A DNA stretch of 16,371 nt from Candidatus Thorarchaeota archaeon. GTDB lineage: Archaea; Asgardarchaeota; Thorarchaeia; Thorarchaeales; Thorarchaeaceae. Positions 1 to 16,371 of the stretch are shown piece by piece (position 1 is the stretch's first letter; each line of letters opens with the position of its first letter). The DNA lies in NCBI GenBank assembly GCA_004524445.1, contig SDNP01000046.1, forward strand, positions 1 through 16,371, read 5' to 3'. The notes under the pieces were generated by a model. That model saw only the letters and a list, made by a program, of their open reading frames with translations, was not told the origin of the DNA and searched no databases. Position numbers and translations under genes: made by a program.

Positions 1-332
1 CCGAGAAAGAGGCAGCCCAGATCAATGGGGTAGTCTTCGCATTGAGATGCGTCCCGACAGATGCATTTGTTCATTACCCAATGGAAGTTGGCTTTGTCGA
101 TGAATTCGTGTATGACTTTTGACGGAAGAGCTGTTTCTGTTGGCATGTCTAGACTCTGATTCACATTGATGTTGATCACGTCATCTTTGGGAAGATACAT
201 GATGTCATCCCCTTCAAAAAGGAATTTTTCAGCGATGGTTCCAAGAACTGGCAAATGAGTAAGCTTTGCAATCATTCTTCGGTTAGGAAATGTCTTCTTT
301 ATCAGCTCAACGAGCCAGAGTGGAGTGCCCAT
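1..332 (-). CDS. Cys-rich 4Fe-4S/ferredoxin-type protein, N-terminal part only (runs off left edge)
   Basis: Not in the ORF track. Manual translation from ATG at 332: MGTPLWLVELIKKTFPNRRMIAKLTHLPVLGTIAEKFLFEGDDIMYLPKDD...HWVMNKCICRDASQCEDYPIDLGCLFL, open to base 1. The CxCR-x4-C-x2-YP-x4-C pattern is typical of the N-terminal half of anaerobe 4Fe-4S-binding proteins. The C-terminal ferredoxin motifs would lie outside the window. Confidence 0.75.
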   Translation of the reverse strand, partial: MGTPLWLVELIKKTFPNRRMIAKLTHLPVLGTIAEKFLFEGDDIMYLPKDDVININVNQSLDMPTETALPSKVIHEFIDKANFHWVMNKCICRDASQCEDYPIDLGCLFL

Positions 333-478
333 ATCCCGTGTCCATCATCTCTATCCTCATATTACTATCGATTTGGATGTGAAGTCGCCTAGTGACTCCT
401 TGGAATGTATTTTACCTTACCAGATGACACTTCATAGCATTTAAGAGAAAGGGGCCTCGAGTATGTATGTAGATAACT

Positions 479-1228
479 ATGGTTAATAACACATTGAAAG
501 ACAAAGTTGCCATTGTGACCGGTTCTGCACAGGGGATCGGGCGCAAAATTGCAGAAGAACTCGCTCTGAGAGGGGCAAAAGTTGCCTTGAGCGACATAAA
601 TGAGAAAGTCGTGCAGGTGGCCAGAGAAATTGGGAGAGAAGAGGAGGTCATGTATGTTGTTGCCGACGTTTCTAACGAGGATCATGTTGAGAAAATGGTA
701 AGCAATGTCTTAGAGCGCTGGGGGCACATTGACATATTGGTCAACAATGCTGGGATATATCCCTATAAATCGCTCAAAGAAATGACCGAAGCTGATTGGG
801 ATAAGGTAATCGATATCAATCTAAAGGGGATGTTCAATTGCGTAAAGGGTGTCTTGCCCGACATGCACGAACACGGCGGAAGCATCATCAACATATCATC
901 CATTGCTGGCACAACTGTAGGGTATGCTCAACTAGCTCACTATAGCGCATCCAAAGCTGGAATGAGCGGTTTCACTCGGAGTGCAGCAGTTGAACTTGCA
1001 GAGGACGGGATACGAGTGAATGCGATTGCTCCAGGCGCAGTTGAAACTCCTACAGTCAAAGAAACCATGGATGAAGAAACACGACAAGCAACAATCGCAT
1101 CCATCCCACTCAAGCGGCTTGGGAAACCCGAAGACATAGCAAACCTGGTTGCATTTCTGGCATCAGAAGAGTCATCGTACATCACAGGTCAATTGATTGT
1201 TATAGACGGCGGAATGACTATCCAGTAG
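479..1228 (+). CDS. fabG: Short-chain dehydrogenase/reductase, FabG-like (3-oxoacyl reductase family)
   Basis: TGSAQGIG dinucleotide-binding motif, NNAG, catalytic S...YSASK, IRVNAIAPG, C-terminal YITGQLIVIDGG. The acidic residue after beta2 (SDIN) suggests NAD(H) preference. Substrate not determinable. Confidence 0.9.
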   Translation: MVNNTLKDKVAIVTGSAQGIGRKIAEELALRGAKVALSDINEKVVQVAREIGREEEVMYVVADVSNEDHVEKMVSNVLERWGHIDILVNNAGIYPYKSLKEMTEADWDKVIDINLKGMFNCVKGVLPDMHEHGGSIINISSIAGTTVGYAQLAHYSASKAGMSGFTRSAAVELAEDGIRVNAIAPGAVETPTVKETMDEETRQATIASIPLKRLGKPEDIANLVAFLASEESSYITGQLIVIDGGMTIQ

Positions 1229-1319
1229 TGTTTGTTCTATCCACCAAAGAGATAATTGACTTACTGCAAGACTAAAGTACTCTTCATGGCTGCTAAACCC
1301 ACAACCCCGTGACTGCATA

Positions 1320-2126
1320 ATGAAAACACTAACGCTCCATAGCTATAAAGGCGGTACTGGACGCACAACCCTTGCCGCAAACATCGCAGCAATCCTAGCG
1401 CAGCGCGGGAACAAGGTTGCAGTACTAGATTTAGATTCATGGTCACCAAGCCTGCATACTATTTTTAGAATAGAACCAAACTCGGGATTCATGCATCAAT
1501 ACCTTTCTGGAAGTATTGACCACAGGGAGCTTATCACTGACCTTACCCCTGCACTGAATCTTGAGGGTGAACTTCATGTGGGCGTCGCTGACTATCATAT
1601 AGATGTCATTCGAGAGAATCTCTCAAAGGACAGAAAATGGCACATGAATGCTTTATCACGGCTCCTCCATCTGAAGGAAGAGCTACGAGATGAGAAATTT
1701 GACTATGTTGTGATGGATTCATCTCCCGGAATTCATTCCTCGACAGTGAATGCTGTTGTCGCATCGGATCTGACTTTGGTAATTTGCAAGATCGACAATT
1801 TTGATTTGGATGGCACAGTGCAGCTCATGGATGTTCTCTATGAACGCCTCGATAAAGAAACTGCATTCCTCTTCAACAAGGTCCCTCCACCTATGCTCGA
1901 AGAACCCAGGAGATCTCAAGTGGAAGACATAATTGAAAATGCGTTTGGCTCTGACGCAGTTCTCATGGGTTTCATGGAATACTATCCCGAAATACCGTTG
2001 TCCATGGGAATTGAGGTTCATGCACTCACATCTCCAGACTTGAAATTTACTCGAAACTTAAAGGACATAGTAAGCAGATTATCAATCGTGTCTGGTTACG
2101 CTGAATCAGCAAGTGGCGAATGCTAA
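1320..2126 (+). CDS. MinD/ParA-family (SIMIBI) P-loop ATPase with variant Walker A (KGGTGRTT)
   Basis: N-terminal HSYKGGTGRTT deviant Walker A, VLDLDSWSPSL (A'), DYVVMDSSPG (Walker B/switch II), LFNKV (G4-like). Confidence 0.9.
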   Translation: MKTLTLHSYKGGTGRTTLAANIAAILAQRGNKVAVLDLDSWSPSLHTIFRIEPNSGFMHQYLSGSIDHRELITDLTPALNLEGELHVGVADYHIDVIRENLSKDRKWHMNALSRLLHLKEELRDEKFDYVVMDSSPGIHSSTVNAVVASDLTLVICKIDNFDLDGTVQLMDVLYERLDKETAFLFNKVPPPMLEEPRRSQVEDIIENAFGSDAVLMGFMEYYPEIPLSMGIEVHALTSPDLKFTRNLKDIVSRLSIVSGYAESASGEC

Positions 2127-2737
2127 TGATACGGGCGGTCTATATCTTCGCTGAGGGCGGCGTTTCCCTCTTTAGTAAGGTATACAATCCAAATGAGGCG
2201 GATCCATTTCTCATGAGCAGTTTCATTTCAGCTATATCTGAATTCAGCAAACAGGCCATGGGTAATAGACTGAGTGGAATCGAAGCCGATGGCCGGTATA
2301 TTTTCAATTATCACCAAGAACCCATAACTGTCGTTTTGCTTGCTGATAGACAGAGCGAGGTTTCTATCAGTCTTCTAGAACAAATCGCTCTCAGCTTCGT
2401 GAGCAAGTACTCGGATATCATCAAGAATGGAGATTTCAATGCAAATAGATTTCAGGACTTTGGTCGTGTACTGAGCAATATCCTTCCGGGTACACTCATG
2501 GAAGTTGAACCTACGGAAGTGATAGAGCCATTGGATGGTGTTAGTATAGTCAGTCTTCCTATCGGTCTGCAGAGAATGGCGAAACTGATTCTTCGAGAGA
2601 AGAAACTCACTCCACTGAGGGCAGCAAAGGGTCTTTGCATAACAAAGGATGCTGCAGCAGAGCAACTTGAACAGCTATTCCAGTTGAAGAAGGTTGCCAG
2701 ACAAAAAACCCCAAATGGGACTCTCTATACTATTTGA
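2126..2737 (+). CDS. Longin-fold domain fused to C-terminal winged helix-turn-helix (alternative start 2120)
   Basis: The first ~120 aa (MIRAVYIFAEGGVSLFSKVY...DPFLMSSFISAISEFSKQ...ITVVLLAD...LLEQIALSFVSKY...FQDF) follow the beta-beta-alpha-beta-beta-beta-alpha-alpha longin pattern of sigma-adaptin/TRAPP-like proteins. The C-terminus (LTPLRAAKGLCITKDAAAEQLEQLFQLKKVARQKTPNGTLYTI) has HTH + beta-wing spacing. ATG 2126 overlaps the upstream TAA (TAATG). Confidence 0.75.
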   Translation: MIRAVYIFAEGGVSLFSKVYNPNEADPFLMSSFISAISEFSKQAMGNRLSGIEADGRYIFNYHQEPITVVLLADRQSEVSISLLEQIALSFVSKYSDIIKNGDFNANRFQDFGRVLSNILPGTLMEVEPTEVIEPLDGVSIVSLPIGLQRMAKLILREKKLTPLRAAKGLCITKDAAAEQLEQLFQLKKVARQKTPNGTLYTI

Positions 2738-2788
2738 GAGAAATTAATAAGAATACAACTGATAAACTCAGAGAATTGTTCAGTAGAT

Positions 2789-2793
2789 GAGGA
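2789..2793 (+). promoter_or_regulatory. Shine-Dalgarno-like GAGGA upstream of the peptide deformylase gene
   Basis: GAGGA ends 6 nt before ATG 2800. Confidence 0.45.
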
Positions 2794-2799
2794 CTAATA

Positions 2800-3288
2800 A
2801 TGGCTAGGCGGCAGATACTTCTTCTGGGTAATCCCAGACTATACGAACCCTCTATTCCTGTTTCTGAAGGTGAGCTTGAAGACTTACAGAATACAGTTGA
2901 CGATTTGCATGAAACATTGAATGCCTTCAGAGCTGAACATGGCGTTGGCAGGGCGATTGCTGCTCCTCAAATTGGTGAATTCAAGCGAATAGTATATGTT
3001 AACATAGATGAGCCCATTGTTCTCCTCAACCCCGAGATTGTACATCATAGCAGAGAGACATTTGAGTTGTGGGATGATTGCATGTCATTCCCAAACCTGC
3101 TAGTTAAGGTCGAGCGCTTTCAAAACATTGTAGTGGAATATAGAGACTTGAATTGGAAGCAAGTAAGTGTGGAGTATTCAGATGATATGTCTGAACTCTT
3201 ACAGCATGAGATTGACCATCTTGATGGCATTCTCGCTGTCCAGCGAGCGAAAGACTCCAGATCCTTTTCTCTACGTTCTGAACGTTAG
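2800..3288 (+). CDS. def: Peptide deformylase (variant motifs)
   Basis: ILLLGNPRL N-terminus, motif 1 GRAIAAPQIG, motif 2 DDCMS (canonical EGCLS), motif 3 QHEIDHLDG (HExxH metal site). Confidence 0.9.
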   Translation: MARRQILLLGNPRLYEPSIPVSEGELEDLQNTVDDLHETLNAFRAEHGVGRAIAAPQIGEFKRIVYVNIDEPIVLLNPEIVHHSRETFELWDDCMSFPNLLVKVERFQNIVVEYRDLNWKQVSVEYSDDMSELLQHEIDHLDGILAVQRAKDSRSFSLRSER

Positions 3289-3414
3289 AGCAATCTGCCT
3301 TAACCCTCGCCTAATATTTTTGCAGTTTCATCTGCTTATGATAGTGTCCAATTGACAACGCTCATATGTTCTCGTTCCATTTCTTCTCAAGCTTCAGGAT
3401 TGAGATGACTTAGA

Positions 3415-6400
3415 ATGAAACATGTCCGGCTCATACTCGCCATACTTATTTCCATCGCCGTTGTTGCTGCCATCACTGTTACGACCTACGGCTGGATATT
3501 GGGACAAACAATATACCAATCCACTTACTCGGCCAAGGCAGGTGTAGATTACTGGGCAACTTGGACTCTCGAGAATAACATCTTCTATGCTTCTATCCTT
3601 CTTGCAGTTCTAAGCATAATCACACTACCTCAGCGCTCAACATTCATCTCCTTTGTTTCAGCCCTCTCTCAAACTGGGCCTGTAGTCAAGAGACTCAAGC
3701 TATCTCATGCAATCATCTGGAGAATTATCGAATTTGGCGGTCTGCTTCTCTTCTACATTTCAAGTGGCGGATATTCTGTTACGGGGCAGAACGTTGCGTT
3801 TCTCATGATGCTAACTGGAGATGGATCAATAGCATTGTCACAGCAGAATATTTCGACTCTATTCTCTCTTCCATTCTACCCGGGTACGCCGTCAGATGCA
3901 ATTATCCAATTGATGCCTGCCTTGGAGGCATATCAGCTCTATGTTGGGCTGATAGCCACATTCATCGTGTTCACGGCTGGTCGCATTGGGCTCTCAATAG
4001 CAGCAGATTTCATGGCTCCGCGACGCGACTCATATGCCATAATTTCGAAGGCGTTATTCATAGTTTCTCTAATCGTTGTGCTGGAAATCCTCAGTGTGCC
4101 TATGTGGACAGCTAATGCAGGCACCTGGATGAGTTACCTCGCACTCATCATTTCCTTGGCTGCAGCATTAATCGGCGCTCTTGCGTTCCTAGTCATGCGG
4201 CTTCACGCAGGGGACGCATACCAACGGCTTCAAGGCAAGATTCAGCAACTGGAAGAGAACTTAGCGAGATTACAAGGAGAGCTGATTTCCGTTCGCTCTG
4301 AGTATGAATCGGGATCTCTCTCTATGGAAGAATACAGACGAAGGGTTTCCATGCTGATGGAGGACCGTGCCAACATAAGCAAAGAATTGCGTCGATTAAA
4401 ACTGGAACGTCTCTTACCAATTGGAACCTCCCCTCGAAAGTTTGGTTTGTTAGCTGCCATACTCATCGTCATGGTTGTCCTATTACCTGTCATTCAAGGA
4501 TTTTACTATGGCATTCAAATGCAGGGCGACAAATACATTGAATGGAAGTTCAACTATGAAACACGAAAGGAGATCGCCATTACAAATTGGGCTGCGGGTG
4601 TGACCGATATAGAGCAGCTCACTATTGATGACCTGATTTCAAATGCGACTCCTGAGAGCGAAGTTGAATTCCTCACAACCGTGAGACAATGGGACCAAGA
4701 AGCAAGTTATCTTCGAATGAAAAACCAGATAGGCACAAATTGGATGCAGTTGGCGGGTTCGGACATTGTGTATTTGAATGGGCAGCAGTATTGGATAGCT
4801 CCGTTGACGTTTGACTACGGCACAATATCAACCAGTTTCATCAATCAGAGGCTGATATATACACATACTGAAGGGATTGTTATCTTAGATGCCTATAGCG
4901 GCGACATTGTAGAAGATGATGCCCTCGTCGCATTATTCAACAGAACAGAGCCGGTCACGATGTATTATGGTGAGGGCACTGGGTTCCGAGGACCAGTATT
5001 TCCCAATGTTCCATCAGTTCAGGAAATTGGCAACAACTCATTTCAGGGAACACCAGATTATAAGCTCCAAGGCTTTGAGTCATTCTACTATATGCTCACT
5101 CAGGGTCCGGAAGCTTGGTCATTCCTTGGACAAGAGATGGATATTCTGATTGAGAGAAATGTTCTGTCGCGTGTTCAGAATGTCTTGCTACAAGGTCTTC
5201 GAGCAGATAACGATCCGTATATCGTGGTGGCACCTGATGGCACATTTAGTTATGCTGTATCAATATATGTTGATTATCGCCTTGCCACGGCATATGCCCA
5301 CGAGAAGTACATGCGGTTCATGGGCGTTGCCCTCGTTGATATTGAAAATGGCGATATTGAGTTCTATAGTCAGCCATTAGTGAACTCCTCTTTCTTCATT
5401 GACCAGACATTCGTAGACCATTATGACTGGCAGCAGGCACCAGATTGGCTTCAAAGACAAATGAAATGGCCGGAGGACTTGTATGAGCGTCAATTGGATG
5501 TAGCATATATTTACCACGTGACTGATGGTTTCCTGTGGAAGGGTGGAAATGATTTTCACGAGTCACCGGAAGGGTCTGATACTCGTTACATCGTGATGCG
5601 TATTGGTGGACTTGACAGATTCGTTGCAATCCATAACTCAGAATTCTTAGATTCAGCAGGACGAAATCTTGCTGGCCTATACACGATTGGCTGTGGAAAC
5701 AAGGACTTCGGAAAACTCCAATTTTATAGCGCTTCAAGTCAAGGGTTCTCGACATTGCTTGGTCCTAATGCTGCGGTTCAGGCATTCGAAACCAATGAAG
5801 ACGTGAGAACGCAATTACAGCTTTGGGGCGATTATCGCTATGGCAATCGTCTTATCTATCATTTGGGTGGTGACTTATTCTTTGTAGTTCCAGTGTTTCT
5901 TGTCGTGGAAACCTCAACGGACAGAGTTATTCAGAAACTGGGAGGCGTTGGCTTGGTTGACGCCGGCACTGGAGAACGTGTTACGTTGGGAGAGAATGTC
6001 ATTGAGGCATATTACAAAATGTTTGGACTACTGAATCGTAGCATTATTGGAGAGGGTGAGGTTGGTATCGAGAATGCTGCGTTCAATCCACTGACCATTG
6101 AATCGGGCGAACTATCACAGCTCTCTATGATATTACGAAACAATGACAATACTGAACATAATCTAACCGTTGACATAACTGTTGCAGCTGGCAACTTCTC
6201 TGTGTTCTGGCATGGTGCAGAAGTGTCACCAATTGCCAACCCATCAAATACAACATTTTCACTCAATATTGGAACTGTAGGCTCAGGTGATTACTACGGG
6301 ACAACTCCATCTTTGACTGCATATCTGCCCGATGGCATTGTATCAGCTCAATACCTGGTAGTTGTGACACTAAGAACCGAAGATGGCATCGAGGATCAGC

Positions 6401-6426
6401 TGAGTCTGATACTGACAATCACTTGA
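3415..6426 (+). CDS. UPF0182-family multi-pass membrane protein with cytoplasmic coiled-coil insert and C-terminal Ig-like domain
   Basis: About 7-8 hydrophobic helices in the first ~365 aa, then a large soluble region with UPF0182-like motifs (VRQWD, RLIYTHTEG, MYYGE, DNDPYIVV, WPEDLY, YGN..IY, FVVPVF). The last ~125 aa are beta-rich. Confidence 0.8.
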   Translation: MKHVRLILAILISIAVVAAITVTTYGWILGQTIYQSTYSAKAGVDYWATWTLENNIFYASILLAVLSIITLPQRSTFISFVSALSQTGPVVKRLKLSHAIIWRIIEFGGLLLFYISSGGYSVTGQNVAFLMMLTGDGSIALSQQNISTLFSLPFYPGTPSDAIIQLMPALEAYQLYVGLIATFIVFTAGRIGLSIAADFMAPRRDSYAIISKALFIVSLIVVLEILSVPMWTANAGTWMSYLALIISLAAALIGALAFLVMRLHAGDAYQRLQGKIQQLEENLARLQGELISVRSEYESGSLSMEEYRRRVSMLMEDRANISKELRRLKLERLLPIGTSPRKFGLLAAILIVMVVLLPVIQGFYYGIQMQGDKYIEWKFNYETRKEIAITNWAAGVTDIEQLTIDDLISNATPESEVEFLTTVRQWDQEASYLRMKNQIGTNWMQLAGSDIVYLNGQQYWIAPLTFDYGTISTSFINQRLIYTHTEGIVILDAYSGDIVEDDALVALFNRTEPVTMYYGEGTGFRGPVFPNVPSVQEIGNNSFQGTPDYKLQGFESFYYMLTQGPEAWSFLGQEMDILIERNVLSRVQNVLLQGLRADNDPYIVVAPDGTFSYAVSIYVDYRLATAYAHEKYMRFMGVALVDIENGDIEFYSQPLVNSSFFIDQTFVDHYDWQQAPDWLQRQMKWPEDLYERQLDVAYIYHVTDGFLWKGGNDFHESPEGSDTRYIVMRIGGLDRFVAIHNSEFLDSAGRNLAGLYTIGCGNKDFGKLQFYSASSQGFSTLLGPNAAVQAFETNEDVRTQLQLWGDYRYGNRLIYHLGGDLFFVVPVFLVVETSTDRVIQKLGGVGLVDAGTGERVTLGENVIEAYYKMFGLLNRSIIGEGEVGIENAAFNPLTIESGELSQLSMILRNNDNTEHNLTVDITVAAGNFSVFWHGAEVSPIANPSNTTFSLNIGTVGSGDYYGTTPSLTAYLPDGIVSAQYLVVVTLRTEDGIEDQLSLILTIT

Positions 6427-6431
6427 GAAAC

Positions 6432-7379
6432 CTACTCAGTGTGATTTCGATACCATGACAAGGTCTCGGACAAACCATCTTTCAATGATTTTGAGGGGTT
6501 GAATCCGAGGACTCTCTTAGCTCGGGCAATGGATCCAATACTATCTCTAACATCTCCCGGTCTCTTCGGTTGATGTAGGATTTCAAGCTTTTTATCCTTC
6601 TCCAACTCATCAATCATGCTAGCCAGTTCTAGGATGCTTATCTGATCGGTGCCTGATATGTTCAGAACCTGCCCGATGGCATTGTCCTGTTCAGCGGCTT
6701 TGATTGTTGCTTCTACTACATCATCAACATGAATGAAGCTACGAGTCTGCTTTCCATCCCCCTCTACTGTTAGTTGTTGCCCTCTAAGAGCTTGATTCAG
6801 AAATATTGAGATCACACCGCTGTACTCGGAGTAGGTTTGCCTGGGGCCAAAGACATTGAAGTATCGAAGAATGGTGGCATCAATAGGAAATGCTTCCTGA
6901 TATGCGCTTAGATAGTTCTCAGCTGATAATTTGGATGCAGCATAGGGACTCAGAGGATGCGTTGGTTCATCCTCCTTGACTGGCAAATCTTCGGGTTTAC
7001 CGTAGACTGCTGCACTGGAACTGAACACAACTCGAGGGGTGTTACAGTATCTAGCAAGTTCCAGCATCATTAGCGTGCCTGTGGCGTTTATTTCGTGTAC
7101 TACTAGAGGCTGCTCGCAGGATAGTCTTACCGAGGATATTGCAGCAAGATGGAACAGAGCATCATATTCACCATTTACAGATTCTCTGAGTTTCGGATTC
7201 GTGATATCCATCTGTAAAAACTCAAATCTGTCAGTTCCCAGAAATGTTGCCATATTTTGCTTAGTACCAGTTCTGAGGTTATCTACTCCAAGAACTGAGC
7301 TCCCGCGATTCAACAATTTTTCTGTAAGATGGCTCCCGATAAATCCTGCACAGCCAGTGACAATTGCCTTCATTGACAC
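6432..7379 (-). CDS. NAD-dependent nucleotide-sugar epimerase/dehydratase (GalE/WbpP-like extended SDR)
   Basis: VTGCAGFIGS, FHLAA, SSSAAVYG, PLSPYAASK, LRYFNVFGPRQ, GDGKQTRSF, RPGDV. GTG start with GGAG 7 nt upstream (alternative ATG 7373). Confidence 0.92.
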   Translation of the reverse strand: MSMKAIVTGCAGFIGSHLTEKLLNRGSSVLGVDNLRTGTKQNMATFLGTDRFEFLQMDITNPKLRESVNGEYDALFHLAAISSVRLSCEQPLVVHEINATGTLMMLELARYCNTPRVVFSSSAAVYGKPEDLPVKEDEPTHPLSPYAASKLSAENYLSAYQEAFPIDATILRYFNVFGPRQTYSEYSGVISIFLNQALRGQQLTVEGDGKQTRSFIHVDDVVEATIKAAEQDNAIGQVLNISGTDQISILELASMIDELEKDKKLEILHQPKRPGDVRDSIGSIARAKRVLGFNPSKSLKDGLSETLSWYRNHTE

Positions 7380-7507
7380 ATCAGGTCTCCGTTATGTTTT
7401 TGGCTTCAGAGTTATTGAGTCCTCTTACAGGCTCAAATATACGTCTCTCCGCCATCATTTCCAGCTCATAGGGCGAAGAAGCCAGCATATGAATGCTGCC
7501 CCATCAT

Positions 7508-7536
7508 AGAGTGCAAACTTCTATATTTTGAACTCT
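7508..7536. promoter_or_regulatory. Imperfect inverted repeat flanking a TATA-like core (candidate operator)
   Basis: AGAGTGCAAA-cttctatat-TTTGAACTCT, 9/10 arm match, ending 27 nt upstream of the GIY-YIG ATG in the divergent intergenic region. Confidence 0.35.
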
Positions 7537-7563
7537 GCTACGCATAATATAGTGACACTCAGC

Positions 7564-7851
7564 ATGTACTTCGTGTACATTATAGAAACTGAAGATGGTA
7601 CCTACTACACAGGACAGACCAATGACTTAGCGCGCAGGTTGAAAGAGCACGCCTATAGCAATTCACATGGATCTTTCTATCTTCGGATGCATAAGCCAAA
7701 ATTTGTGGTACATCTGGAACAGTTTGAAAGCAGGTCGGAAGCCATGCAGAGGGAACTGGAGATAAAGAACAATCGTAAGCTCAAAATGGAATTAATTGGG
7801 CCACGGCGGGATATCCGGGAAGTAATTGCCACTGAAGAGAGCTACAAATAG
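7564..7851 (+). CDS. Small GIY-YIG nuclease family protein (UPF0213/YhbQ-like)
   Basis: MYFVYII...GTYYTGQTNDLARRLKEH and E.FESRSEAMQRELEIK. ATG 7564 is preferred over TTG 7528. Confidence 0.88.
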   Translation: MYFVYIIETEDGTYYTGQTNDLARRLKEHAYSNSHGSFYLRMHKPKFVVHLEQFESRSEAMQRELEIKNNRKLKMELIGPRRDIREVIATEESYK

Positions 7852-7966
7852 TAAATCCCGGCCTTTGCAACAATCCCTTGCTTGGTAATATGACTCTCAT
7901 GAGGAGTTAGAATCCTTATATTTGCAGAAATGAAGATAATCATGTATGCGAGGAAGTGGTTCATTT

Positions 7967-8890
7967 ATGCGTGAGCTAGTTACGAGAACTGGTAGACAAC
8001 GGGCAGTCTTTATTCTTACTATATTGATTTTCAGCTATGGCATTCTTTCGATAAATATAGAGTCTGTTTCGGCGCAGGAAGATTCTGAAGTGGGTTGGGC
8101 AGTGATTATGGAGATGCTTGAATATCCCGAGGGGTGGAATGACATTCCCACAGAGCATGCGGATAGTAAGAAATGGAATAACACACTTCACGCACTTGGT
8201 TGGGACAGCGATCATATTCGGATTCTTCATGAAGAAATCACATTCGGTAGAATTGTAGACGAGTTTCAATGGCTTGAAGAAAACACGGATGAAAATGATG
8301 CAGTGGTATTCTTTGTCTTTGCACATGGATCTTGGATGCGAAATATCATAGGAGATGGAATTGATATAGGGGCGGCTTGGGAGGATATTCCCAGCAACAA
8401 GAAACTGATGGTATTTTCAACATGTCATGCGGGGGAGTTTGTCACGGGAATACCGGGTGATGACCCTCAAGTCAGGATTGGCTCGGTTCAACGTGACGAG
8501 CTCGCTTGGGCAGGAATTCCGGAAGAAGACCTGCCTATCATTGGCGAGGTCTTCAATCACTTCTTTACTTCAGCACTCCTTAATGCAACAGCTGATACAA
8601 ATGATGATGGAGATGTCAGCGTTGAGGAGGCATTCTATCTAGCTTCCCCCAACACACAGGAGTACCTTCAGAACACAGTGTTTCCTGCTTTCCCAGACTA
8701 TGCTGAAATTTGTAACAATTCAGTTCCTGAGCCAGTTATTCTAGATATGTATGGTGGGGATTTATCATTGGCATGGAACGAAATAGAATCCGAATCTGCA
8801 AATCCATATCCAATTATCTTGGTGTCTATCATGTTCGCAACATTAGTCATCATCCTTGTTTATAGACATCGTAGAGAACGCATAGGATAG
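7967..8890 (+). CDS. Secreted, membrane-anchored caspase/legumain-fold (clan CD) cysteine peptidase (alternative start 7946)
   Basis: Signal-peptide-like N-terminus (RQRAVFILTILIFSYGILSINIESVSA|QED). His motif FFVFAHG (CAT 8324-8326) and Cys motif FSTCHAG (TGT 8423-8425). ADTNDDGDVSVEEAF loop typical of prokaryotic caspase-family proteins. C-terminal TM helix plus basic tail (YPIILVSIMFATLVIILVYRHRRERIG). Confidence 0.82.
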   Translation: MRELVTRTGRQRAVFILTILIFSYGILSINIESVSAQEDSEVGWAVIMEMLEYPEGWNDIPTEHADSKKWNNTLHALGWDSDHIRILHEEITFGRIVDEFQWLEENTDENDAVVFFVFAHGSWMRNIIGDGIDIGAAWEDIPSNKKLMVFSTCHAGEFVTGIPGDDPQVRIGSVQRDELAWAGIPEEDLPIIGEVFNHFFTSALLNATADTNDDGDVSVEEAFYLASPNTQEYLQNTVFPAFPDYAEICNNSVPEPVILDMYGGDLSLAWNEIESESANPYPIILVSIMFATLVIILVYRHRRERIG

Positions 8891-9098
8891 TTTTGATTAT
8901 CCTGAGTGGTGGATATGGACTAGTAGCGAGGTGTGCTGCTGCAGCTACTGTTGCAACAACTAATGCTGCTGTTATTGGACTGGCTGATTATACAGACGCA
9001 GATGGAGTCCCTTGTGGCTCGATACTGGAAGCCATTAGCCAACTGTCTTAGTTTGTACAAGATACAGGTGTGGGTACTACTAGTGCCAACGCCTCATT

Positions 9099-9824
9099 CT
9101 ACTTTCCAATGAAGCATGTTCTTTCGATATTAATTGACCAGAAACGAAGGCCAGAAAGTTCCGCACATGATTCTGTTGGAATATGCCTTGGAATAGCTTC
9201 AAGGATAGATTGAGGTGGTCTTTGAACTTTCTCTTTTTTGCGTGATTCCCCGGAATCTTGCCATGAGGATGCCGGCAAGGCAGCTTGTATCGCCCTGGAT
9301 ACGCTTTGTCGGCCGGAATGTGCCGAAGCACTATAATCAGACGGACTAATTCTAAAGAGATAATACGAAACAATAAGTATGAGCACGCATACGACAATAT
9401 TCATGGACCAAATCAAGTTTACAATTACTTCAAAAGTCGATACCCACTGCCAATTCTCCAATAATCCCAAAATGAAGGATGAAATAATAAGACCCACATA
9501 TGAAAGTAGACCAATAAGCAAAATGACCGCCAGCAGCGATAATGAGGTGGATGCCATTCTTGCCTTTTCCAATGCGTCTGGCTGCGGGAGGAATACTCCT
9601 CCTATAAACTGGGAGTTTGATTTTGTTGAGCCTTCAAACAGCATTAGCCGTATATCGTCTTTTTCCATGCACACTGAGGTATCCTCTTCAGCAGAGCCCA
9701 CAATCTCATAATGGTGTGCTACAAAGCTATTCTTGAGGTCAGAAAAATCAATAGACTGGTCCCAAAGGACAAAATAATAGATTCCGAAGGACTGTTTTGG
9801 CTCTGCGAACCATATTTTGCTCAA
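9099..9824 (-). CDS. Hypothetical membrane protein (2 central TM helices)
   Basis: 241-aa ORF with TTG start preceded by GGGAG, and two long hydrophobic stretches. No family recognised. Confidence 0.55.
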   Translation of the reverse strand: MSKIWFAEPKQSFGIYYFVLWDQSIDFSDLKNSFVAHHYEIVGSAEEDTSVCMEKDDIRLMLFEGSTKSNSQFIGGVFLPQPDALEKARMASTSLSLLAVILLIGLLSYVGLIISSFILGLLENWQWVSTFEVIVNLIWSMNIVVCVLILIVSYYLFRISPSDYSASAHSGRQSVSRAIQAALPASSWQDSGESRKKEKVQRPPQSILEAIPRHIPTESCAELSGLRFWSINIERTCFIGK

Positions 9825-10059
9825 AGGAACTCCCTTCTCTTCTTCTGCTGGAATTTCTATTTAGCCTTATGCCCTTCAAAGTACACAGTTGTTCACTGAT
9901 AAAACACAAAAGAATCAACCACTCAGAGTCAAATCATACGAGCTCTCATTCATTGAAACGTGACAACTAACCTTAATCCATCAAATGAGAGTTTTATTTC
10001 TTGAGAGAATTCGAATACTTCTTATCAGGGAGGCGCTTCCTAACCAGCTAGTGGTTGAA

Positions 10060-11580
10060 ATGGCTGAATATGTCCTAGCTATCGATGTTGGCACATCAGG
10101 CGTACGTTCTATCATATTTGATACAAACGGCGAAGTAAAGGCGAGCGCCTATGATGAATTCACTAGCATGTATCCCCGTCCCTCTTGGGTGGAGCAAAAT
10201 GCGGATGCTTGGTGGTCAGCAGCAACAGATACAACCCGGCTTGCACTCAAGGAGACCACGCTCTCAGGTGAGGACATCATTGGAATCAGTGTTACGAACC
10301 AGAGAGAAACAATCGTTCCCGTCGATGAATATGGTACTCCACTCAGACATGCCATAGTGTGGCAGGACCGAAGAACGACTGTCCAATGTGATGCAATCCG
10401 CTCAAGAATTCCCGTTGAGAAAATCTATCACACGACTGGGTTGACAGTAGATCCTTATTTCTCCGCGCCGAAAATCTTGTGGATAAAAGACAATGAACCA
10501 GAGGTATTCAAGAAGACGCACAAATTTCTCCTTGTTCATGATTACCTTGTTCACAAATTGGCAGGCAACTATGTCACTGATTACTCGAATGCAAGTCGTA
10601 CCCTTCTCTTTGACATAGACGCATCTCAATGGTCTGATTTAATGCTCAACGAGCTGGAAATACCCACAGAAAAGATGCCTAAACCTGTGTCTCCTGGCAC
10701 AAAAGCAGGAGAGCTTACCACTAAAGCTGCTGAATCAATGGGTCTTGAGCGCGGGACTCCAATTATCGCAGGAGGTGGCGATCAGCAATGTGCCGCATTG
10801 GGGGTTGGTGTAGTCGAAGAAGGCATGATAAAAGCTACTACGGGTACGGGTACATTCATTCTAGCCCACTCGGATGCACTCAGACTGGATGACGAAAGAA
10901 GAGTTCTCTGCAGTCGGCACGTTGTTCCAGAATCTTATGTGGTAGAGGCCAGCATGTTTACTACCGGTTCCGCATTGCGTTGGGTACGAGATAACATAGC
11001 CATCGAGGAGTGCAATATTGCGGAAAAGAGGAATATGGACCCCTATGATATAATGACAGCCGAGGCTGAGCAAATATCTCCCGGATCAGAAGGTGTTATC
11101 CATATACCCCACCTTGCTGGAGCAGGTGCACCATATTGGAATCCACATGCGCGTGGTGTCTTTGCTGGACTCGCTCTAGGTCATACTCGTAGTCATATGA
11201 TTCGTTCTGTCTTGGAAGGTGTTTCTTATGAAATTCGGGCTAATCTGGAAGTAATGAGATCTCTTGGTCTCCCCTCTGATGAAGTGAGGATAACAGGCGG
11301 AGCTGCTCGTAGCGAGACATGGATGCAGATACAGGCAGATGTGCTTGGCGTCCCCGTAATCAGAACCGAGTTGGAGGATGCCACTGCTTTGGGTGCTGCC
11401 ATTCTTGCTTGCTATGGTGTTGGTATCTTCAAATCGATTTCAGCTGCTGCACGAGAGATGGTCAGACTGAAAGACCAGTTGAAACCATCTGAGGAAAATA
11501 GGACAGTATATGATACGGCATACGAAAGATATCGGGAATTATACGACGCCATCTCCGAGATTCGATTGGATACTATCTAA
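10060..11580 (+). CDS. FGGY-family carbohydrate kinase (glycerol kinase/xylulokinase-like)
   Basis: LAIDVGTSG, ISVTNQRET, AIVWQDRRT, DPYFSAPKILW, TDYSNASRT, GGGDQQCA, GAPYW, RSVLEGV, ITGGAARS, ATALGAA. The start is moved to MAEYVL (10060) because the family motif begins there. Confidence 0.93.
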   Translation: MAEYVLAIDVGTSGVRSIIFDTNGEVKASAYDEFTSMYPRPSWVEQNADAWWSAATDTTRLALKETTLSGEDIIGISVTNQRETIVPVDEYGTPLRHAIVWQDRRTTVQCDAIRSRIPVEKIYHTTGLTVDPYFSAPKILWIKDNEPEVFKKTHKFLLVHDYLVHKLAGNYVTDYSNASRTLLFDIDASQWSDLMLNELEIPTEKMPKPVSPGTKAGELTTKAAESMGLERGTPIIAGGGDQQCAALGVGVVEEGMIKATTGTGTFILAHSDALRLDDERRVLCSRHVVPESYVVEASMFTTGSALRWVRDNIAIEECNIAEKRNMDPYDIMTAEAEQISPGSEGVIHIPHLAGAGAPYWNPHARGVFAGLALGHTRSHMIRSVLEGVSYEIRANLEVMRSLGLPSDEVRITGGAARSETWMQIQADVLGVPVIRTELEDATALGAAILACYGVGIFKSISAAAREMVRLKDQLKPSEENRTVYDTAYERYRELYDAISEIRLDTI

Positions 11581-12863
11581 GATGCATAGACCGCTATCTT
11601 GTTCGCTTTATCCAAGACAGTGATCTTCACATTTGGATCATCTTCAATCCATCTATCAATAGTTTCCTGTGGATTGAATACCTTGTTGAGATGAGCAGCC
11701 TCTACATCATCCTTTTCGAGCTTGGTGTACATATCGATTGAATTCACGCGTTTGAGTAACTGGGCAAACTTGTATGCTTTGTGTTGGTAGAGTTTGTACC
11801 CTTCGCTAATGCTATCAATCACTTTGTTAAGCGGCATTGTGAGCTTATTGTAGAAGTTCTCGATAGCGGAACCTGGTCCAATTCCATCTCTACACTCTGC
11901 TAGGAATAGGATATCTCCTCCGTCCATCACGGCATTCTTGGTTAGCTCTAAACCCCTCTGTGCGTGGTACAAGCTCTTATCCTGGGGATAACCGCCGGGA
12001 GATACCACTATCTTAGGGGTTGGTTGGACAGTGAAACTAGTAGTCTCATCTAAGATTTCAATCCCACCGGCAATGACCGGTTTCACCTCGCCAGCATCCG
12101 CCCAGACAATTTCTTCCCCTGCTGAAATGACGGATAGGGTGAAGACCCTAGCATCCTTTGTAATCATCTCAAAGGCCTCCCTCATATCATCAGCCAGAGG
12201 ATTATTTCGTCTGTCTTTATTTGGATGATATGGGTGAAGGCCAAAGGTCGAGTTTACATCAAGAGCCATGGAGTGGTTTGCTTCTATGCTGTCAAACGCA
12301 CAGATGCCTGGCAATAAGTCCTTTAGAGCATTGGAATAACCAGCAAAATAGTGTGCCTTCATGTCAGCGAGTGCTACATACAGCTCATGGCCTAATGCTG
12401 CATCATTTATTATGACAGGGGTTCCTCTAGATGTGGTGCCCACATCAGTGACATCCTCGCTCTCGCAGTCATTGATAACCACATCATAGTTTTCTAACTT
12501 TGCTGAGCGTGCTGCTCGATGAATCATCTCAACTATTTCGAGATTTCCCGTATGCTTGACCTCATGTGAGCCAGTTGTGACAATGAATTGGACCATAGTT
12601 GCATCTCTTAGGCGTGGAACTGTGGTACTCAGAAGTTCCCAATGAGGCTCATCACGTGTATGATCTTCTACCAAGACACAGACACTCTTTCCTCGACTGA
12701 GGTCTTCGAGCATTTCGCCATGTGGGTTGTCAAGGACACGATTCAGTTCATGCTCCACATCAGCTATAGTGTCAGGATTTCTTGGCTCAATAATATCTGC
12801 AAGATTCTTCTTAGGAATCTCAAGTTCTATTTTTTCCCTTCCGTACGTAAGGCTGACCTTCAT
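11577..12863 (-). CDS. larA: LarA-family nickel-pincer-dependent racemase/epimerase
   Basis: MKVSLTYG start, EDHTRDEPH, TTGSH, GTTSRGTP, HYFAGYSNALKDLLPGI, EANH, GGYPQD.SLY, AECRDGIG, HKAY. The start is moved from 12935 to ATG 12863. The substrate may not be lactate. Confidence 0.88.
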   Translation of the reverse strand: MKVSLTYGREKIELEIPKKNLADIIEPRNPDTIADVEHELNRVLDNPHGEMLEDLSRGKSVCVLVEDHTRDEPHWELLSTTVPRLRDATMVQFIVTTGSHEVKHTGNLEIVEMIHRAARSAKLENYDVVINDCESEDVTDVGTTSRGTPVIINDAALGHELYVALADMKAHYFAGYSNALKDLLPGICAFDSIEANHSMALDVNSTFGLHPYHPNKDRRNNPLADDMREAFEMITKDARVFTLSVISAGEEIVWADAGEVKPVIAGGIEILDETTSFTVQPTPKIVVSPGGYPQDKSLYHAQRGLELTKNAVMDGGDILFLAECRDGIGPGSAIENFYNKLTMPLNKVIDSISEGYKLYQHKAYKFAQLLKRVNSIDMYTKLEKDDVEAAHLNKVFNPQETIDRWIEDDPNVKITVLDKANKIAVYAS

Positions 12864-12968
12864 TGAATACCCCTGTATTATTTCTGTCTTGGTACCAGAA
12901 AAACATTCACTAAGATGCACTCTCGTGGAAACCAAAATGATTATTCGACTTGGAACGAAAAATCATCT

Positions 12969-13298
12969 ATGGACAATGACGAAAGACAGGATAGCCTTGA
13001 TATGACTATCGGCCGATGAATAGATGTGGAATCAGAGCCACCCTGTTTTATGATAACCTTCCTCTCCGCAGGACAAAAATTTGGTTTCTCTCTTGGCGGC
13101 ACACGAGGTGCGATGTGGGGGCACTCATTGGTTCTTTAGCAGGATCCGTTTTTTTGGTGTGATTAGTATATTCATTTCAATTCGGGTCTATGAAAGAATT
13201 GAACAGAAACAGGCTTCACATTAATCTTACACCCATCCTCAGTTGAAGAAATTCCTGAAGATGTGAAGTTTGATTTTGAAAATGAAGGTGACCCGTAA
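12969..13298 (+). pseudogene. Disrupted small two-TM (AtpZ/AtpI-like topology) membrane protein gene
   Basis: Reconstruction: MDNDERQDSLDMTIGR*IDVESEPPCFMITFLSAGQKFGFSLGGTRGAMWG/ALIGSLAGSVF/FGVISIFISIRVYERIEQKQASH*SYT/PSSVEEIPEDVKFDFENEGDP*. It has two in-frame stops (13017, 13222) and three single-base deletions in homopolymers, and ends 5 nt from the convergent gene's stop. Confidence 0.55.
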
Positions 13299-13303
13299 CC
13301 TTT

Positions 13304-13882
13304 CTAATCCAAGAATTCTGAGTCATCAGTGTCAAGAACTTCAATAATCACTTTTGATGCGGTTCTTCCCACAATTGCGATAATGATTTGAATTAGGAGC
13401 GCAATGAAGAAAGCACCCAGCGCGAAACTGAACACAAGTAGTGATATCGAGTCATACGATGCAGCCCAAGGCGCAAGGTAGTATTTGTGGATCAAATACC
13501 AGATGTATATACCTGTTATCCCCACCAAGCCCACAATTAGGGCATACATGTAGACCAGGGTCTTGACTCTTGGCTTATCAATATCTACGATTTCAATTCC
13601 TGGGCCAATTACTGCATAACTGATTCTCCTAGAGAAGCGCAAAAAGAAGCTAAAGGCAATCAGAAAGACCATGAGAGTAATGATACTCCCCACGAGTAGA
13701 AGTAAGACTCTTAGATCCTCAGCAATGCCAGGGATGAACTCATCTAGGTAGAATGCTGCTATTGCTCCAATCATGACAATGACGGATATAATCTCAACAA
13801 TGAAGGTGGCTATAGATGAATTGCGAAAGAGAGACCCAATATCGAAGAGCTTTCTGTTTTGGGATACACTATTCTCCGTCAT
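13304..13882 (-). CDS. Hypothetical 4-TM membrane protein
   Basis: 192-aa ATG-started ORF with four hydrophobic helices arranged as two hairpins and an acidic C-terminal tail. Confidence 0.8.
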   Translation of the reverse strand: MTENSVSQNRKLFDIGSLFRNSSIATFIVEIISVIVMIGAIAAFYLDEFIPGIAEDLRVLLLLVGSIITLMVFLIAFSFFLRFSRRISYAVIGPGIEIVDIDKPRVKTLVYMYALIVGLVGITGIYIWYLIHKYYLAPWAASYDSISLLVFSFALGAFFIALLIQIIIAIVGRTASKVIIEVLDTDDSEFLD

Positions 13883-14020
13883 ATTGTTGCGCCTTATCTG
13901 GCATGTGCGTTTCTAGTATTTGAATGTTGATGAAAAGAATCAAGCATAGTTCTTTCATGCTGGAGATACTCTTTACCATCCCTTCAAGGTAAGTTGAATA
14001 TATAGTGCTGCTCCCATACT

Positions 14021-14044
14021 AGATCCGAATCAAACATCGGATTT
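14021..14044. other. Short hairpin downstream of the large helical-protein gene (possible terminator/processing element)
   Basis: agATCCGA-atcaaaca-TCGGATtt, a 6-bp perfect stem about 30 nt after the stop at 14076. Confidence 0.25.
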
Positions 14045-14075
14045 GACGATTTGAACTGATTATCTATTCTGTTGG

Positions 14076-16371
14076 TCAGCCAGTTCCACCAAGGTAGAGT
14101 GCTGCAAGCTCTTGGTCACCTTTGTACTGGGGTTCTTGATCGCGACTCAGACGTTGTCTATTGTCCCACATACTTCGTGCTAGTAAGTCTGCTGTCTTCG
14201 CCCTTCTGTCAACACTCTGAGCTGCCTGCGAATCTCCCACTTCCTGAAACGCCTGTGCTGCTACGTTATAATTGCCCACCGCTTCTCTGAGCATATCTTT
14301 GGCATCATCGTAATGCCTTTGTGCCTTAGTATTCTGTCCCCGCCTTGACATGAACTCTGCAATGAAATCGCTCCGCGCACCCTGGAGTCGAGATAAATCT
14401 CCTTGGAACTTCATTACGACTGCCTTTAGCTGTTTCACTTGAACGTCTACATTGTTCTTCTTACGAATTATTTCTCCTTCTACACTGTCGAGTGCTTTCG
14501 AGGCTTCATCAAATGAAGCAATAGCATGCCGTATCCTTAGAATTGCCTCATCATGAACATTGACTCCCTTCTCAATAGTGTCATTCTCTTCCAATTCCAG
14601 TATCGCATCATCGATATTTTGGATTATATTGCCTCTCTCAATCTGCGATCGAAAGGCCCACTGCTCCGATTGTCTTGCGAACACCTGTGCTTCCGAGGCA
14701 TAGGCAGTGGCAAGCGCGAGCTTGCCCAAATCCGTCAATTCTTCGGCTGTTTCATCCTTTCCCAGTATCTTGTAGTACTTGGCTGCATCAGCTGCATGAA
14801 GATTCTCCAAAATCCGGGACATGATGAATTTCACACCATGTTGCAGATTTGAGCTTAGTTGAAACTGGATTACATACTTCGCATTACTGAGTATCGCTCG
14901 CGTTCTATTTCTAAGAAGAGTGACCTCTTCGTCTTCCGAGTCAAGATTCAGCAGAATACCAAGACTATTCAGTGCTTCACGGATTGAGTCGAGAGCATCA
15001 GATGGTTCATCTGATAATTGATTACTTGCATCATCTAGGAATTTATTCACATCCTGTATTAGCCCTGTCTTTCTAAGGTCCTTTGCAAAGTCTATCTGTT
15101 CAGCGATGCTGCTGGCTTTTCTCTCCTTTTTATTCATCAAATCTTCAACATATGAAATGATTCTGAGGTCTTCCTTAATCGCTGAAATGAGTTCCCTGCT
15201 TCCAGCCAACTTTTCAGCCTTTTTCAAATTCTTAGCAATATCTCCGAGAACCTCTTGGGCTCCATCAATATTCTCTACTTCAAGAAGGTCCGATAGCACC
15301 TTCAAGGAGGTTTCAGCTTTGCAAAACAGGGCTTGGGATTTCCGATGATTTTTGTCCTTCCCGGATTGCTCTGCATTCCTTCTCAGAGCTATAACTTCAT
15401 TGAAAACAGATTCAGCTCGGGCAAATGCATCAGATGATGATTGATAGAGCTTTGCAGCGTCTTCCAAATTACCATCTCTCAGTTGAGTGTCAGCGATATC
15501 ATCGTAGGTCATAGCGAGGTACACCTCACTAAGCCCCGCAGTATTGTGTTTCCATGATTTTATCCTTGAAATGATGGCCTCGTTGCCTTTTCCTCCCTTC
15601 TCCAAATCGGCTAATGCTTCATTGTAGAGGTCAGTTGCCTGCTCGAATATGAACGAGCTAAGGATATCTCTCCAAACAATCTCGTCAAAGGGATTGAATG
15701 CCTGCCGGAATGTACTCTCTTCTTGTATGAGCTCATTGAGAAACTCATCATAGAATTCTGCCTCTGCCGCCTTATTCTTGCCCAGAACAGTCGCCAACTC
15801 TTCTTCGTTCTTACTGGGAGATTCTTCTAGGAGGCTATAGGCCTTGTACCCTAATGCCACTCGCCTTAGTTTCTGCGTACCGTCAACTTTTGAAGGAACT
15901 GCATTAAATGACCTTTCGAGCATGGTATAGACAGAAGCAAGAAATGTGGATGCTTTTTCCACCTTGTCCGCATGTTCCTTCTCGACAAAGGGGCCACTAG
16001 CAGCAGCTGCTTGATGCAACCATGCCATGACTTTGGCCATCCAAATCTCGGATAGACTTTCTTGGACCTGTTCCTGAAGCTGTTTCATTGCCTCTTCGAG
16101 TTGTTCGCGAGCTTCTCCTTCGGCCTGTATCAATCGGTTCCTCAAGTATGCAATGTCAAAGTCTTGACCCATTATTCTCTCACCGAGGGATGCCGTAGCA
16201 TTGTAGAGCTGGGTAAATGCATCATGCATAGCAATCCGTTTGTTTTCGAGTTCCTGTGTATCATCAATATCATGGAGTGCAAAGTCAAAGACTGCATCTT
16301 GGGATGCCTTGTTCAATTCAAAGAGGTGCTTGGTATAAACCTCAATTTCATCTGAATTTGTATCTGTCTTC
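14076..16371 (-). CDS. Large all-alpha helical (TPR/SNAP-like solenoid) hypothetical protein, 5'-truncated
   Basis: The frame stays open upstream of the TTG at 16316 (KTDTNSDEIEVYTKHLFE-L...) to the window edge, so the true start is outside. The sequence is Ala/Glu/Leu/Lys-rich and Pro-poor, with recurring A..Y..A...F helices. Confidence 0.85.
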   Translation of the reverse strand, partial: KTDTNSDEIEVYTKHLFELNKASQDAVFDFALHDIDDTQELENKRIAMHDAFTQLYNATASLGERIMGQDFDIAYLRNRLIQAEGEAREQLEEAMKQLQEQVQESLSEIWMAKVMAWLHQAAAASGPFVEKEHADKVEKASTFLASVYTMLERSFNAVPSKVDGTQKLRRVALGYKAYSLLEESPSKNEEELATVLGKNKAAEAEFYDEFLNELIQEESTFRQAFNPFDEIVWRDILSSFIFEQATDLYNEALADLEKGGKGNEAIISRIKSWKHNTAGLSEVYLAMTYDDIADTQLRDGNLEDAAKLYQSSSDAFARAESVFNEVIALRRNAEQSGKDKNHRKSQALFCKAETSLKVLSDLLEVENIDGAQEVLGDIAKNLKKAEKLAGSRELISAIKEDLRIISYVEDLMNKKERKASSIAEQIDFAKDLRKTGLIQDVNKFLDDASNQLSDEPSDALDSIREALNSLGILLNLDSEDEEVTLLRNRTRAILSNAKYVIQFQLSSNLQHGVKFIMSRILENLHAADAAKYYKILGKDETAEELTDLGKLALATAYASEAQVFARQSEQWAFRSQIERGNIIQNIDDAILELEENDTIEKGVNVHDEAILRIRHAIASFDEASKALDSVEGEIIRKKNNVDVQVKQLKAVVMKFQGDLSRLQGARSDFIAEFMSRRGQNTKAQRHYDDAKDMLREAVGNYNVAAQAFQEVGDSQAAQSVDRRAKTADLLARSMWDNRQRLSRDQEPQYKGDQELAALYLGGTG

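Follow-up and report, generated by a model that had tools for sequence, protein, structure and literature searches.

Contig SDNP01000046.1 of Candidatus Thorarchaeota archaeon (assembly GCA_004524445.1) carries two genes, sharing a single base, for a MinD/ParA-fold ATPase and for a partner protein in which a longin domain is joined to a winged helix. The stretch analysed, positions 1 to 16,371 of the forward strand (16,371 nucleotides), is called the window below. The pair is read here, with somewhat better than even probability, as a self-contained ATPase-adaptor module: an old archaeal pairing of a ParA/MinD-type ATPase with a winged-helix protein, in its Asgard version, which bears a longin. 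The module is real and old, and its kind of system is already on record. The evidence comes from the recurrence of the two genes side by side across Asgard archaea, from a modelled complex in which the winged-helix end of the partner seems to hold the ATPase, and from Bathyarchaeial relatives whose partners have the winged helix and no longin.

In Asgard archaea, longin domains count among the eukaryote-signature modules, and discussion of them is usually confined to their role beside small GTPases. In the present case a protein with a longin is linked genetically to a ParA/MinD switch of prokaryotic type, and the pair offers a simple two-protein system for probing what a longin does in an archaeon. 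An earlier note on this DNA had pointed out the overlapping stop and start codons, had given the partner a longin-like N-terminus and a wHTH-like (winged helix-turn-helix) C-terminus, and had suggested checking for conserved adjacency in Asgard genomes and for an interaction of the two proteins in a modelled complex. All of this is borne out by the results below, the interaction at the level of prediction. Two further proposals of that note, on the role of the longin and on the novelty of the module, did not hold up and are taken up where the alternatives and the known systems are discussed.

Organization of the gene pair

The ATPase gene (P0001, 1320–2126, + strand, 268 aa) is recognised as an open reading frame (ORF), by its Pfam matches and by its structural model. 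The partner gene (P0002, 2126–2737, + strand, 203 aa) is likewise an ORF, and its AlphaFold2 (AF2) model comprises a longin domain, a linker motif and a winged helix. The ATPase stop codon (TAA, 2124–2126) and the ATG of the partner (2126–2128) have one base in common, within the sequence TAATG at 2124–2128 (+ strand). An alternative in-frame ATG lies upstream of this start, at 2120, but since all orthologues begin with MIR, the start at 2126 is the one adopted. Overlaps of 1 or 4 bases, or gaps of a few bases, are repeatedly seen at orthologous loci, and adjacency with overlap or near-abutment is seen again at dozens of loci, which belong to several Asgard families.

Upstream of the pair lies a gene for a short-chain dehydrogenase (SDR, 479–1228), and downstream a gene for peptide deformylase (Def, 2800–3288), followed by one for a 1003-aa UPF0182 membrane protein. 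A genome of the same genus, G386, is collinear with the window at this locus (G386:C1), with 82% nucleotide identity over window positions 1–1228 and 79% over 2799–7373. It keeps the SDR, Def, UPF0182, epimerase and GIY-YIG genes, while the two-gene cassette with its flanking spacers (1229–2798, no strand assigned) is replaced by 75 bp, and neither ATPase nor partner is present at the locus. Because G386 lacks exactly these two genes from an otherwise collinear region, they are gained or lost as one unit. The module is accessory, not core.

The deformylase is of bacterial type, although in an archaeon (Pep_deformylase, 131.5 bits), and its gene comes after the pair here and at no fewer than eight related Thorarchaeial loci. 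In relatives at 77% and 50% identity, ATPase, partner and deformylase are kept together and the outer flanks differ. A three-gene unit that includes the deformylase was considered and rejected: Def stays in G386, which has no pair at this locus, and is absent beside the pair at many loci.

Conservation and distribution

When 29 Asgard loci were picked on ATPase similarity alone, 25 of them, including all of the 16 closest, had a partner gene beside the ATPase gene on the same strand. The two genes have the look of a co-transcribed module. Three of the four loci without an adjacent partner encode long ATPase fusion proteins. Cross-matching the coordinates of the ATPase and partner profile searches gave more than 40 loci with the ATPase gene directly upstream of a longin-winged-helix gene, and three distant members of the partner family (24–31% identity) are also preceded by a ParA/CbiA gene. 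Related loci come from metagenome-assembled genomes (MAGs) of Thorarchaeota; one ATPase relative, from a Candidatus Thorarchaeota genome, is 51% identical. In loci of Heimdall/Hodarchaeota type (L036, L040, L043, L103, L106 and L110), the ATPase forms the N-terminal domain of proteins of 565–902 aa. No separate partner gene was detected at these six loci, and the longin and winged-helix profiles find no match in the C-terminal parts of the fusions.

The partner profile matches 395 of 400 Asgard genomes, many paralogues in each. The ATPase, at E ≤ 1e-30, is present in 65 of the 400, in 24 of 85 genera and in 15 of the 85 genomes of the window's own family. Up to four copies occur in a single genome, and tandem partner genes are found in G078, G075, G077 and G067.

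The ATPase

The ATPase passes the Pfam cut-offs for AAA_31 (70.8 bits vs 27) and CbiA (45 bits vs 25.4), and remains below the NCBIfam cut-offs for MinD (TIGR01968, 53 bits vs 212.9; TIGR01969, 54.9 vs 201.75). The SRP54-type GTPase family PF00448 is also below its cut-off (12.6 bits vs 22.7, E 0.1). The AF2 model, with a predicted local distance difference test score (pLDDT) of 89 and a predicted template modelling score (pTM) of 0.90, is matched best by E. coli MinD (3r9j_B: Z 28.4, root-mean-square deviation (rmsd) 2.4, 238 residues aligned; 3q9l_A: Z 28.1). FleN (Z 27.7) and Soj (Z 27.0) are effectively level with MinD, and further matches include FleN-FleQ complexes (7ejw, Z 27.5; 8p53, Z 26.7), SegA (7dut, Z 22.6) and the ParA of pNOB8. 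By sequence, the closest solved relatives of the ATPase profile are archaeal MinD, FleN and Soj. As modelled, the fold is of intact MinD/FleN/Soj type, and the sensor-1 residues D37-L-D39 and the Walker B residue D133 are invariant or nearly so among orthologues.

The Walker A motif is deviant (SYKGGTGRTT, 1341–1370, + strand): the signature lysine, Lys10, is retained and the canonical P-loop lysine is replaced by Arg15 (KGGTGRT, codon 1362–1364). Arginine is found only in a single Thorarchaeial clade of 7 rows, monophyletic with 100/100 support. The other orthologues all read KGG[TV]GK, with lysine in 33 longin-linked ATPases and in 36 that are linked to a short winged-helix protein. Since two Thorarchaeial genomes, G385 (contigs C12 and C23) and G336 (C6 and C4), each carry one Arg-type and one Lys-type pair, the two forms represent coexisting paralogues rather than allelic variants. 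Across the aligned sequences, the Lys-to-Arg change in the P-loop is specific to a paralogue and not a trait of the family. After sensor-1 the window protein reads DLDSWSPS and its orthologues [AGS]P[ST], SPG being found only in a distant paralogue on contig C48 of the window's genome. The C-terminal residues 262–268 are disordered in the model, and no amphipathic basic membrane-targeting helix is apparent there, as judged by inspection alone.

The C48 paralogue belongs to a second ATPase-linked longin operon (1937–2848 and 583–1866 of locus L011 and 1354–2118 of locus L016, all on the − strand). Two paralogous longin proteins of 303 and 427 aa, with C-terminal helix-turn-helix (HTH) regions, are encoded there upstream of, and overlapping, a 254-aa MinD-type ATPase. 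The Walker A motif of this ATPase is FRGGTGKS, in which the signature lysine is replaced by arginine.

The partner protein

Relatives of the partner are few by word-indexed search (4), while exhaustive search gave 75 clusters (E ≤ 1e-3), of which roughly 30 are full-length. The AF2 model was built on a 29-row alignment and has a pLDDT of 91. Its residues 1–124 (2126–2497, + strand) are assigned to the longin fold by their topology, β-β-α-β-β-β-α(α), and by their structural matches. The best of these are the longin of Fuzzy (7q3d_C, Z 13.4, rmsd 2.8, 121 aligned), TRAPP (3cue_C, Z 12.9), VAMP7/Sec22 (Z 12.5) and the SRX domain of SR-alpha (Z 11.6). The best longin matches span 114–121 aligned residues, that is, the whole domain. 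Roadblock structures align over only about 95 residues, with Z no higher than 10.9. No profilin occurs among the top 50 structural matches of this domain, and its Foldseek matches are concordant. At the level of Pfam the longin remains below threshold (Fuz_longin_1, 20.8 bits vs 26.1; Longin, 16.9 vs 26.2).

The winged-helix domain takes up residues 138–203 (2537–2734, + strand) of the model. Residues 137–203 match the winged helices of TFE-alpha (Z 9.7, rmsd 1.5, 66 aligned), AntR (Z 9.6), ESCRT-II (Z 9.2) and TrmBL2 (Z 8.9), and there are weak sequence matches to ArsR/SmtB, MarR, TFE and Lrs14. The motif EPLDxxSIxxLP leads into the domain and, together with the first winged-helix helix (residues 134–159; 2525–2602, + strand), is the predicted ATPase-docking element, on the evidence of the complex model and of conservation. 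Residues L136, P145 and A152 are invariant or nearly invariant among orthologues. Across 23 orthologues the net charge of the recognition helix ranges from −5 to +3 and that of the wing from 0 to +6; in most Asgard orthologues the recognition helix is acidic or neutral, with few basic residues. In all 136 locus pairs compared, conservation is lower in the partner than in the ATPase, and it is slightly lower in the winged helix than in the longin.

The same genome encodes another longin-winged-helix protein, a 207-aa paralogue on contig C1 (1501–2124 of locus L008, + strand) with 28% identity over the longin domain. No ATPase gene lies beside it, and the PLD docking motif is absent. Most genomes of the family have matches of this C1 type (profile positions 3–197, E about 1e-40).

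A modelled complex of ATPase and partner

When the two proteins were modelled together, the complex reached an ipSAE of 0.70 (runs of 0.60, 0.70 and 0.70), the best of three controls reaching 0.01. A mark of 0.70 is passed by 58 of 80 solved complexes and by 2 of 110 mismatched pairs. Contacts agreed between runs by at least 90%, and the pLDDT of the partner in the complex was 72. The confident contacts of the partner are its residues 134–143, 146–159, 169–171 and 203, with zero longin residues among them. Those of the ATPase are residues 105–120, 140–148 and 172–178, which lie on three helices (1632–1853, + strand) and form the surface predicted to hold the partner. In both proteins the interface residues are the conserved ones, and V143, N144, Y174 and L177 of the ATPase interface are nearly invariant. 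The ATPase contacts map to residues 99–111, 127–135 and 159–165 of E. coli MinD, including I159 of helix 7, by an alignment of about 20–25% identity that is anchored at Walker B and free of gaps. Helix 7 of MinD is the site common to MinE and MinC (PMC6803595). The model supports binding of the two proteins, and it is apparently the winged-helix end of the partner, rather than the longin, that grips the ATPase.

Longin-less partners in Bathyarchaeia

A scan with the ATPase alignment, one genome per species, gave 79 usable loci. Sixteen are Asgard loci with a longin-winged-helix gene; 18 such genes lie downstream of the ATPase gene and one upstream. At 38 loci, mostly of Bathyarchaeia, a gene of 120–165 aa stands immediately upstream of the orthologous ATPase and matches only the C-terminal part of the partner profile. 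The short partner of Bathyarchaeia consists of an N-terminal helix, a [S/P]LDxxxLLSxP motif and a winged helix, without a longin. These short proteins are strongly conserved, and their wing and helix are basic. The type of partner tracks the ATPase tree, and the part common to both types is exactly the element modelled at the interface. Because the Bathyarchaeial partners share the motif and the winged helix but have no longin, the longin is an Asgard addition to an older ATPase-winged-helix pair and not its core regulator.

Two pairs of Bathyarchaeial type (L082 and L089) occur in MAGs labelled Candidatus Acidoferrum (Acidobacteriota) and Chloroflexia. In the tree both fall inside clades of Bathyarchaeia, which makes transfer a less likely explanation than mis-binning.

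Proposed mode of action and alternatives

In the module as proposed, the PLD motif and the first helix of the winged helix would dock on the three ATPase helices, at the face equivalent to that on which MinD receives MinE and MinC. An ATP-bound ATPase dimer may capture the winged-helix end of the partner, or be regulated by it, by analogy with MinD-MinE and FleN-FleQ. The longin would be left free as a second platform, for dimerisation of the adaptor or for recruitment of another protein. The Lys-to-Arg change in Walker A of the Thorarchaeial paralogue would probably slow hydrolysis and give a longer-lived switch. Candidate jobs for such a module are the positioning of a cargo, the control of a DNA-bound regulator, and the role against invaders that has been proposed in a recent preprint (see below).

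Several points weigh against this reading. At 25 of the 79 loci, from Nitrososphaerales, a second Bathyarchaeial clade and the fusions, no partner is found by the profiles used. The complex is a 1:1 model, nucleotide-free and with a single ATPase subunit, and its calibration is only rough, since alignments of our own making were used. Its pass may partly reflect likeness to solved peptide complexes of MinD-MinE or ParA-ParB, and the correspondence with the MinD face depends on the low-identity alignment described above. Binding, ATPase activity and expression are all purely computational predictions, and the part given to the longin is one that we infer.

A free longin could also recruit a small GTPase of the Asgard Arf/Rab/Rag-like kind while the winged-helix end holds the ATPase, although we give this only a slight chance. 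If true, a single adaptor would form a physical link between a SIMIBI switch and one of the Ras superfamily, a prokaryotic arrangement like that of SR-alpha/SR-beta (longin SRX, Arf-like GTPase and SIMIBI NTPase), and a possible stepping stone toward the longin-based trafficking regulators of eukaryotes. No GTPase gene is linked to the pair within the window. In the relative with the 50%-identical partner, and in this relative only, a gene for an Arf-family small GTPase (310 aa, 8776–9708 of locus L001/L002) lies about 2 kb downstream of the pair.

Other explanations place the weight on DNA. The pair could be an immune module against invaders, in which the winged helix recognises foreign DNA, the ATPase multimerises and coats it, and the longin-like domain extends the assembly. 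Its architecture agrees with the description of such systems by Li, Burroughs and Aravind, and the patchy occurrence of the ATPase (including its absence from the G386 locus), the variable copy number, the faster evolution of the partner and the Walker A arginine of the window protein, a mark of the ConB2 assemblage, are all in keeping with it. On the other side, no effector gene is present, and the neighbours are of housekeeping type (SDR, deformylase, PolD, beta-CASP, EF-2) rather than defence islands. PADLOC returns the generic ParA-like PDC-M28B for the ATPase (3.7e-12) and nothing for the partner or the neighbours. The recognition helix of most Asgard orthologues is acidic or neutral; the short Bathyarchaeial partner is strongly conserved, not fast-evolving; most orthologues keep the canonical lysine; and the preprint proposal is itself a computational hypothesis. 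This explanation is regarded as unlikely, if worth keeping in view. The classic layout of a partition or positioning locus (type Ib par, or archaeal SegAB), a small ParA-fold ATPase coupled to a small protein with a DNA-binding fold, is also recognisable here, with the winged-helix protein as the site-specific DNA binder, and both the structural matches to SegA and pNOB8 ParA and the basic wing and helix of the Bathyarchaeial partners fit with it. However, no iterated or centromere-like repeats were found in 1150–2850, nor any tandem arrays across the window, although such sites could sit elsewhere. A sister species does without the pair, and some genomes have several copies. MinD and FleN are structurally closer than the partition ParAs, though within about 1.5 Z units. 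A tblastn search with the partner found nothing in known plasmids or phages, a weak negative given that Asgard mobile elements are poorly represented, and IMG/VR gave only distant ParA relatives (≤28% identity over the full length). A partition function is rated as quite improbable.

Two explanations remain. The earlier note had proposed that the longin could serve the SIMIBI ATPase as regulator or adaptor, and that the winged helix binds DNA or something else. The longin fold is genuine, longin and roadblock domains regulate NTPases, SRX of SR-alpha is among the structural matches, and further longin-bearing proteins adjoin related ATPases in the same genome. Yet the confident interface is free of longin residues, orthologous ATPases are paired with longin-less partners that retain the PLD-winged-helix module, and it is this C-terminal module that is conserved across both partner types. 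The proposal is rated as very unlikely. The partner might otherwise be a transcription factor built of a sensor domain plus a wHTH, as in CodY, that responds to a ligand or a partner and is gated by the MinD-type ATPase as FleQ is by FleN. The FleN-FleQ complexes among the best ATPase matches point this way, as do the ArsR, MarR and Lrs14 regulators among the sequence matches of the winged helix, and a weak full-length likeness to CodY (GAF plus wHTH) was obtained by Foldseek. The CodY matches are poor (template modelling (TM) score 0.27–0.29, rmsd 16), the Asgard recognition helices have few basic residues, and no palindromic operator stands out upstream of the pair; its chances are put as slim. 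The ATPase-adaptor module remains the preferred reading.

Other genes of the window

The genome to which the window belongs amounts to 2.79 Mb in 64 contigs. A stand-alone GIY-YIG protein of 107 aa is encoded at 7528–7851, followed at 7946–8890 by a gene for a protein of 314 aa, which has a signal-like segment at its N-terminus and a membrane helix at its C-terminus and matches caspases weakly (Peptidase_C14, E 1.1e-3). In the same-genus genome, recognisable conservation of this protein is limited to its first 74 residues (48% identity). At the far end of the window, a gene on the − strand (14076–16370) runs off the end and encodes more than 764 aa of a helix- and charge-rich protein, with one weak TPR match and no other family. 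It is adjoined by a gene for a 192-aa multi-pass membrane protein without a family match (13304–13882, − strand).

Comparison with known systems

MinD is the top structural match of the ATPase, and the partner is modelled on the helix-7 face (equivalent of I159) that serves MinE and MinC. In contrast to MinD, the window ATPase remains under the TIGR01968 and TIGR01969 cut-offs, has no evident membrane-targeting helix and carries the Walker A arginine, and its partner is unrelated to MinE or MinC. The FleN/FlhG-FleQ system offers a MinD-type ATPase that gates a DNA-binding regulator, and FleN is a near-top match in both structure and sequence. FleQ, however, is an AAA+ enhancer-binding protein and not a longin-winged-helix protein, and the window has no flagellar context. 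With ParA-ParB/ParG and SegA-SegB the pair shares its operon layout, in which a small ATPase with a deviant Walker motif is combined with a small adaptor of DNA-binding fold. It differs from these type I partition pairs in the centromere-like repeats, of which none were found, in being optional and sometimes multicopy, and in the fold and motif of the partner.

The fold of residues 1–124 is that of TRAPP Bet5/Trs23, Mon1-Ccz1, Fuzzy-Inturned, MglB, Ragulator and SRX-SR-beta (Z 10–13.4). TRAPP, Mon1-Ccz1, Fuzzy-Inturned, MglB, Ragulator and the SRX of SR-alpha are NTPase-associated adaptors. Unlike these small-GTPase longin platforms, the present protein has a SIMIBI ATPase as its neighbour, and its longin surface is unused in the model. 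The SRP receptor alpha differs further, in that the window ATPase is of MinD/ParA type and scores below the cut-off for the NG GTPase of SRP54 type. Literature searches gave nothing relevant on longin together with MinD in Asgard archaea, nor on KGGVGR.

The closest system is the mainly archaeal “ParA-wHTH system”, described computationally by Li, Burroughs and Aravind (bioRxiv 10.64898/2026.10.19.760177, 22 Oct 2026). In it, a ParA is coupled to at least one gene for a wHTH that has a helix at its N-terminus and is sometimes fused to a V4R or a profilin-longin superfamily domain; the system is placed in the ConB2 assemblage, with a Walker A arginine and a PG motif after sensor-1, and is proposed to coat invader DNA, with a rapidly evolving wHTH (bioRxiv 10.64898/2026.10.19.760177). 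Since fusions of profilin-longin type are part of that description, the suggestion of the earlier note that the module was unrecognised no longer stands. Judged by the published description, the window pair likely belongs to this system. Common to both are the coupling of an archaeal ParA to a wHTH, the helix before the wHTH, the longin-type fusion, the tandem partners and the Walker A arginine of the window protein. On the other hand, most of the orthologues found here keep the Walker A lysine and have P[ST] rather than PG after sensor-1, the N-terminal domain is matched in structure by true longins, with Z values of up to 13.4, the contact with the ATPase is modelled on the winged-helix module, and there is no sign of a defence context. 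Beyond the preprint, the present comparison adds a predicted interface, with the PLD motif and the first helix of the winged helix on the face equivalent to that for MinE and MinC. Further new points are that the longin was added later, in Asgard archaea, to an older ATPase-winged-helix pair held in common with Bathyarchaeia, that the Lys-to-Arg change of the P-loop is paralogue-specific, and that of two sister species one can have the complete module and the other lack it altogether.

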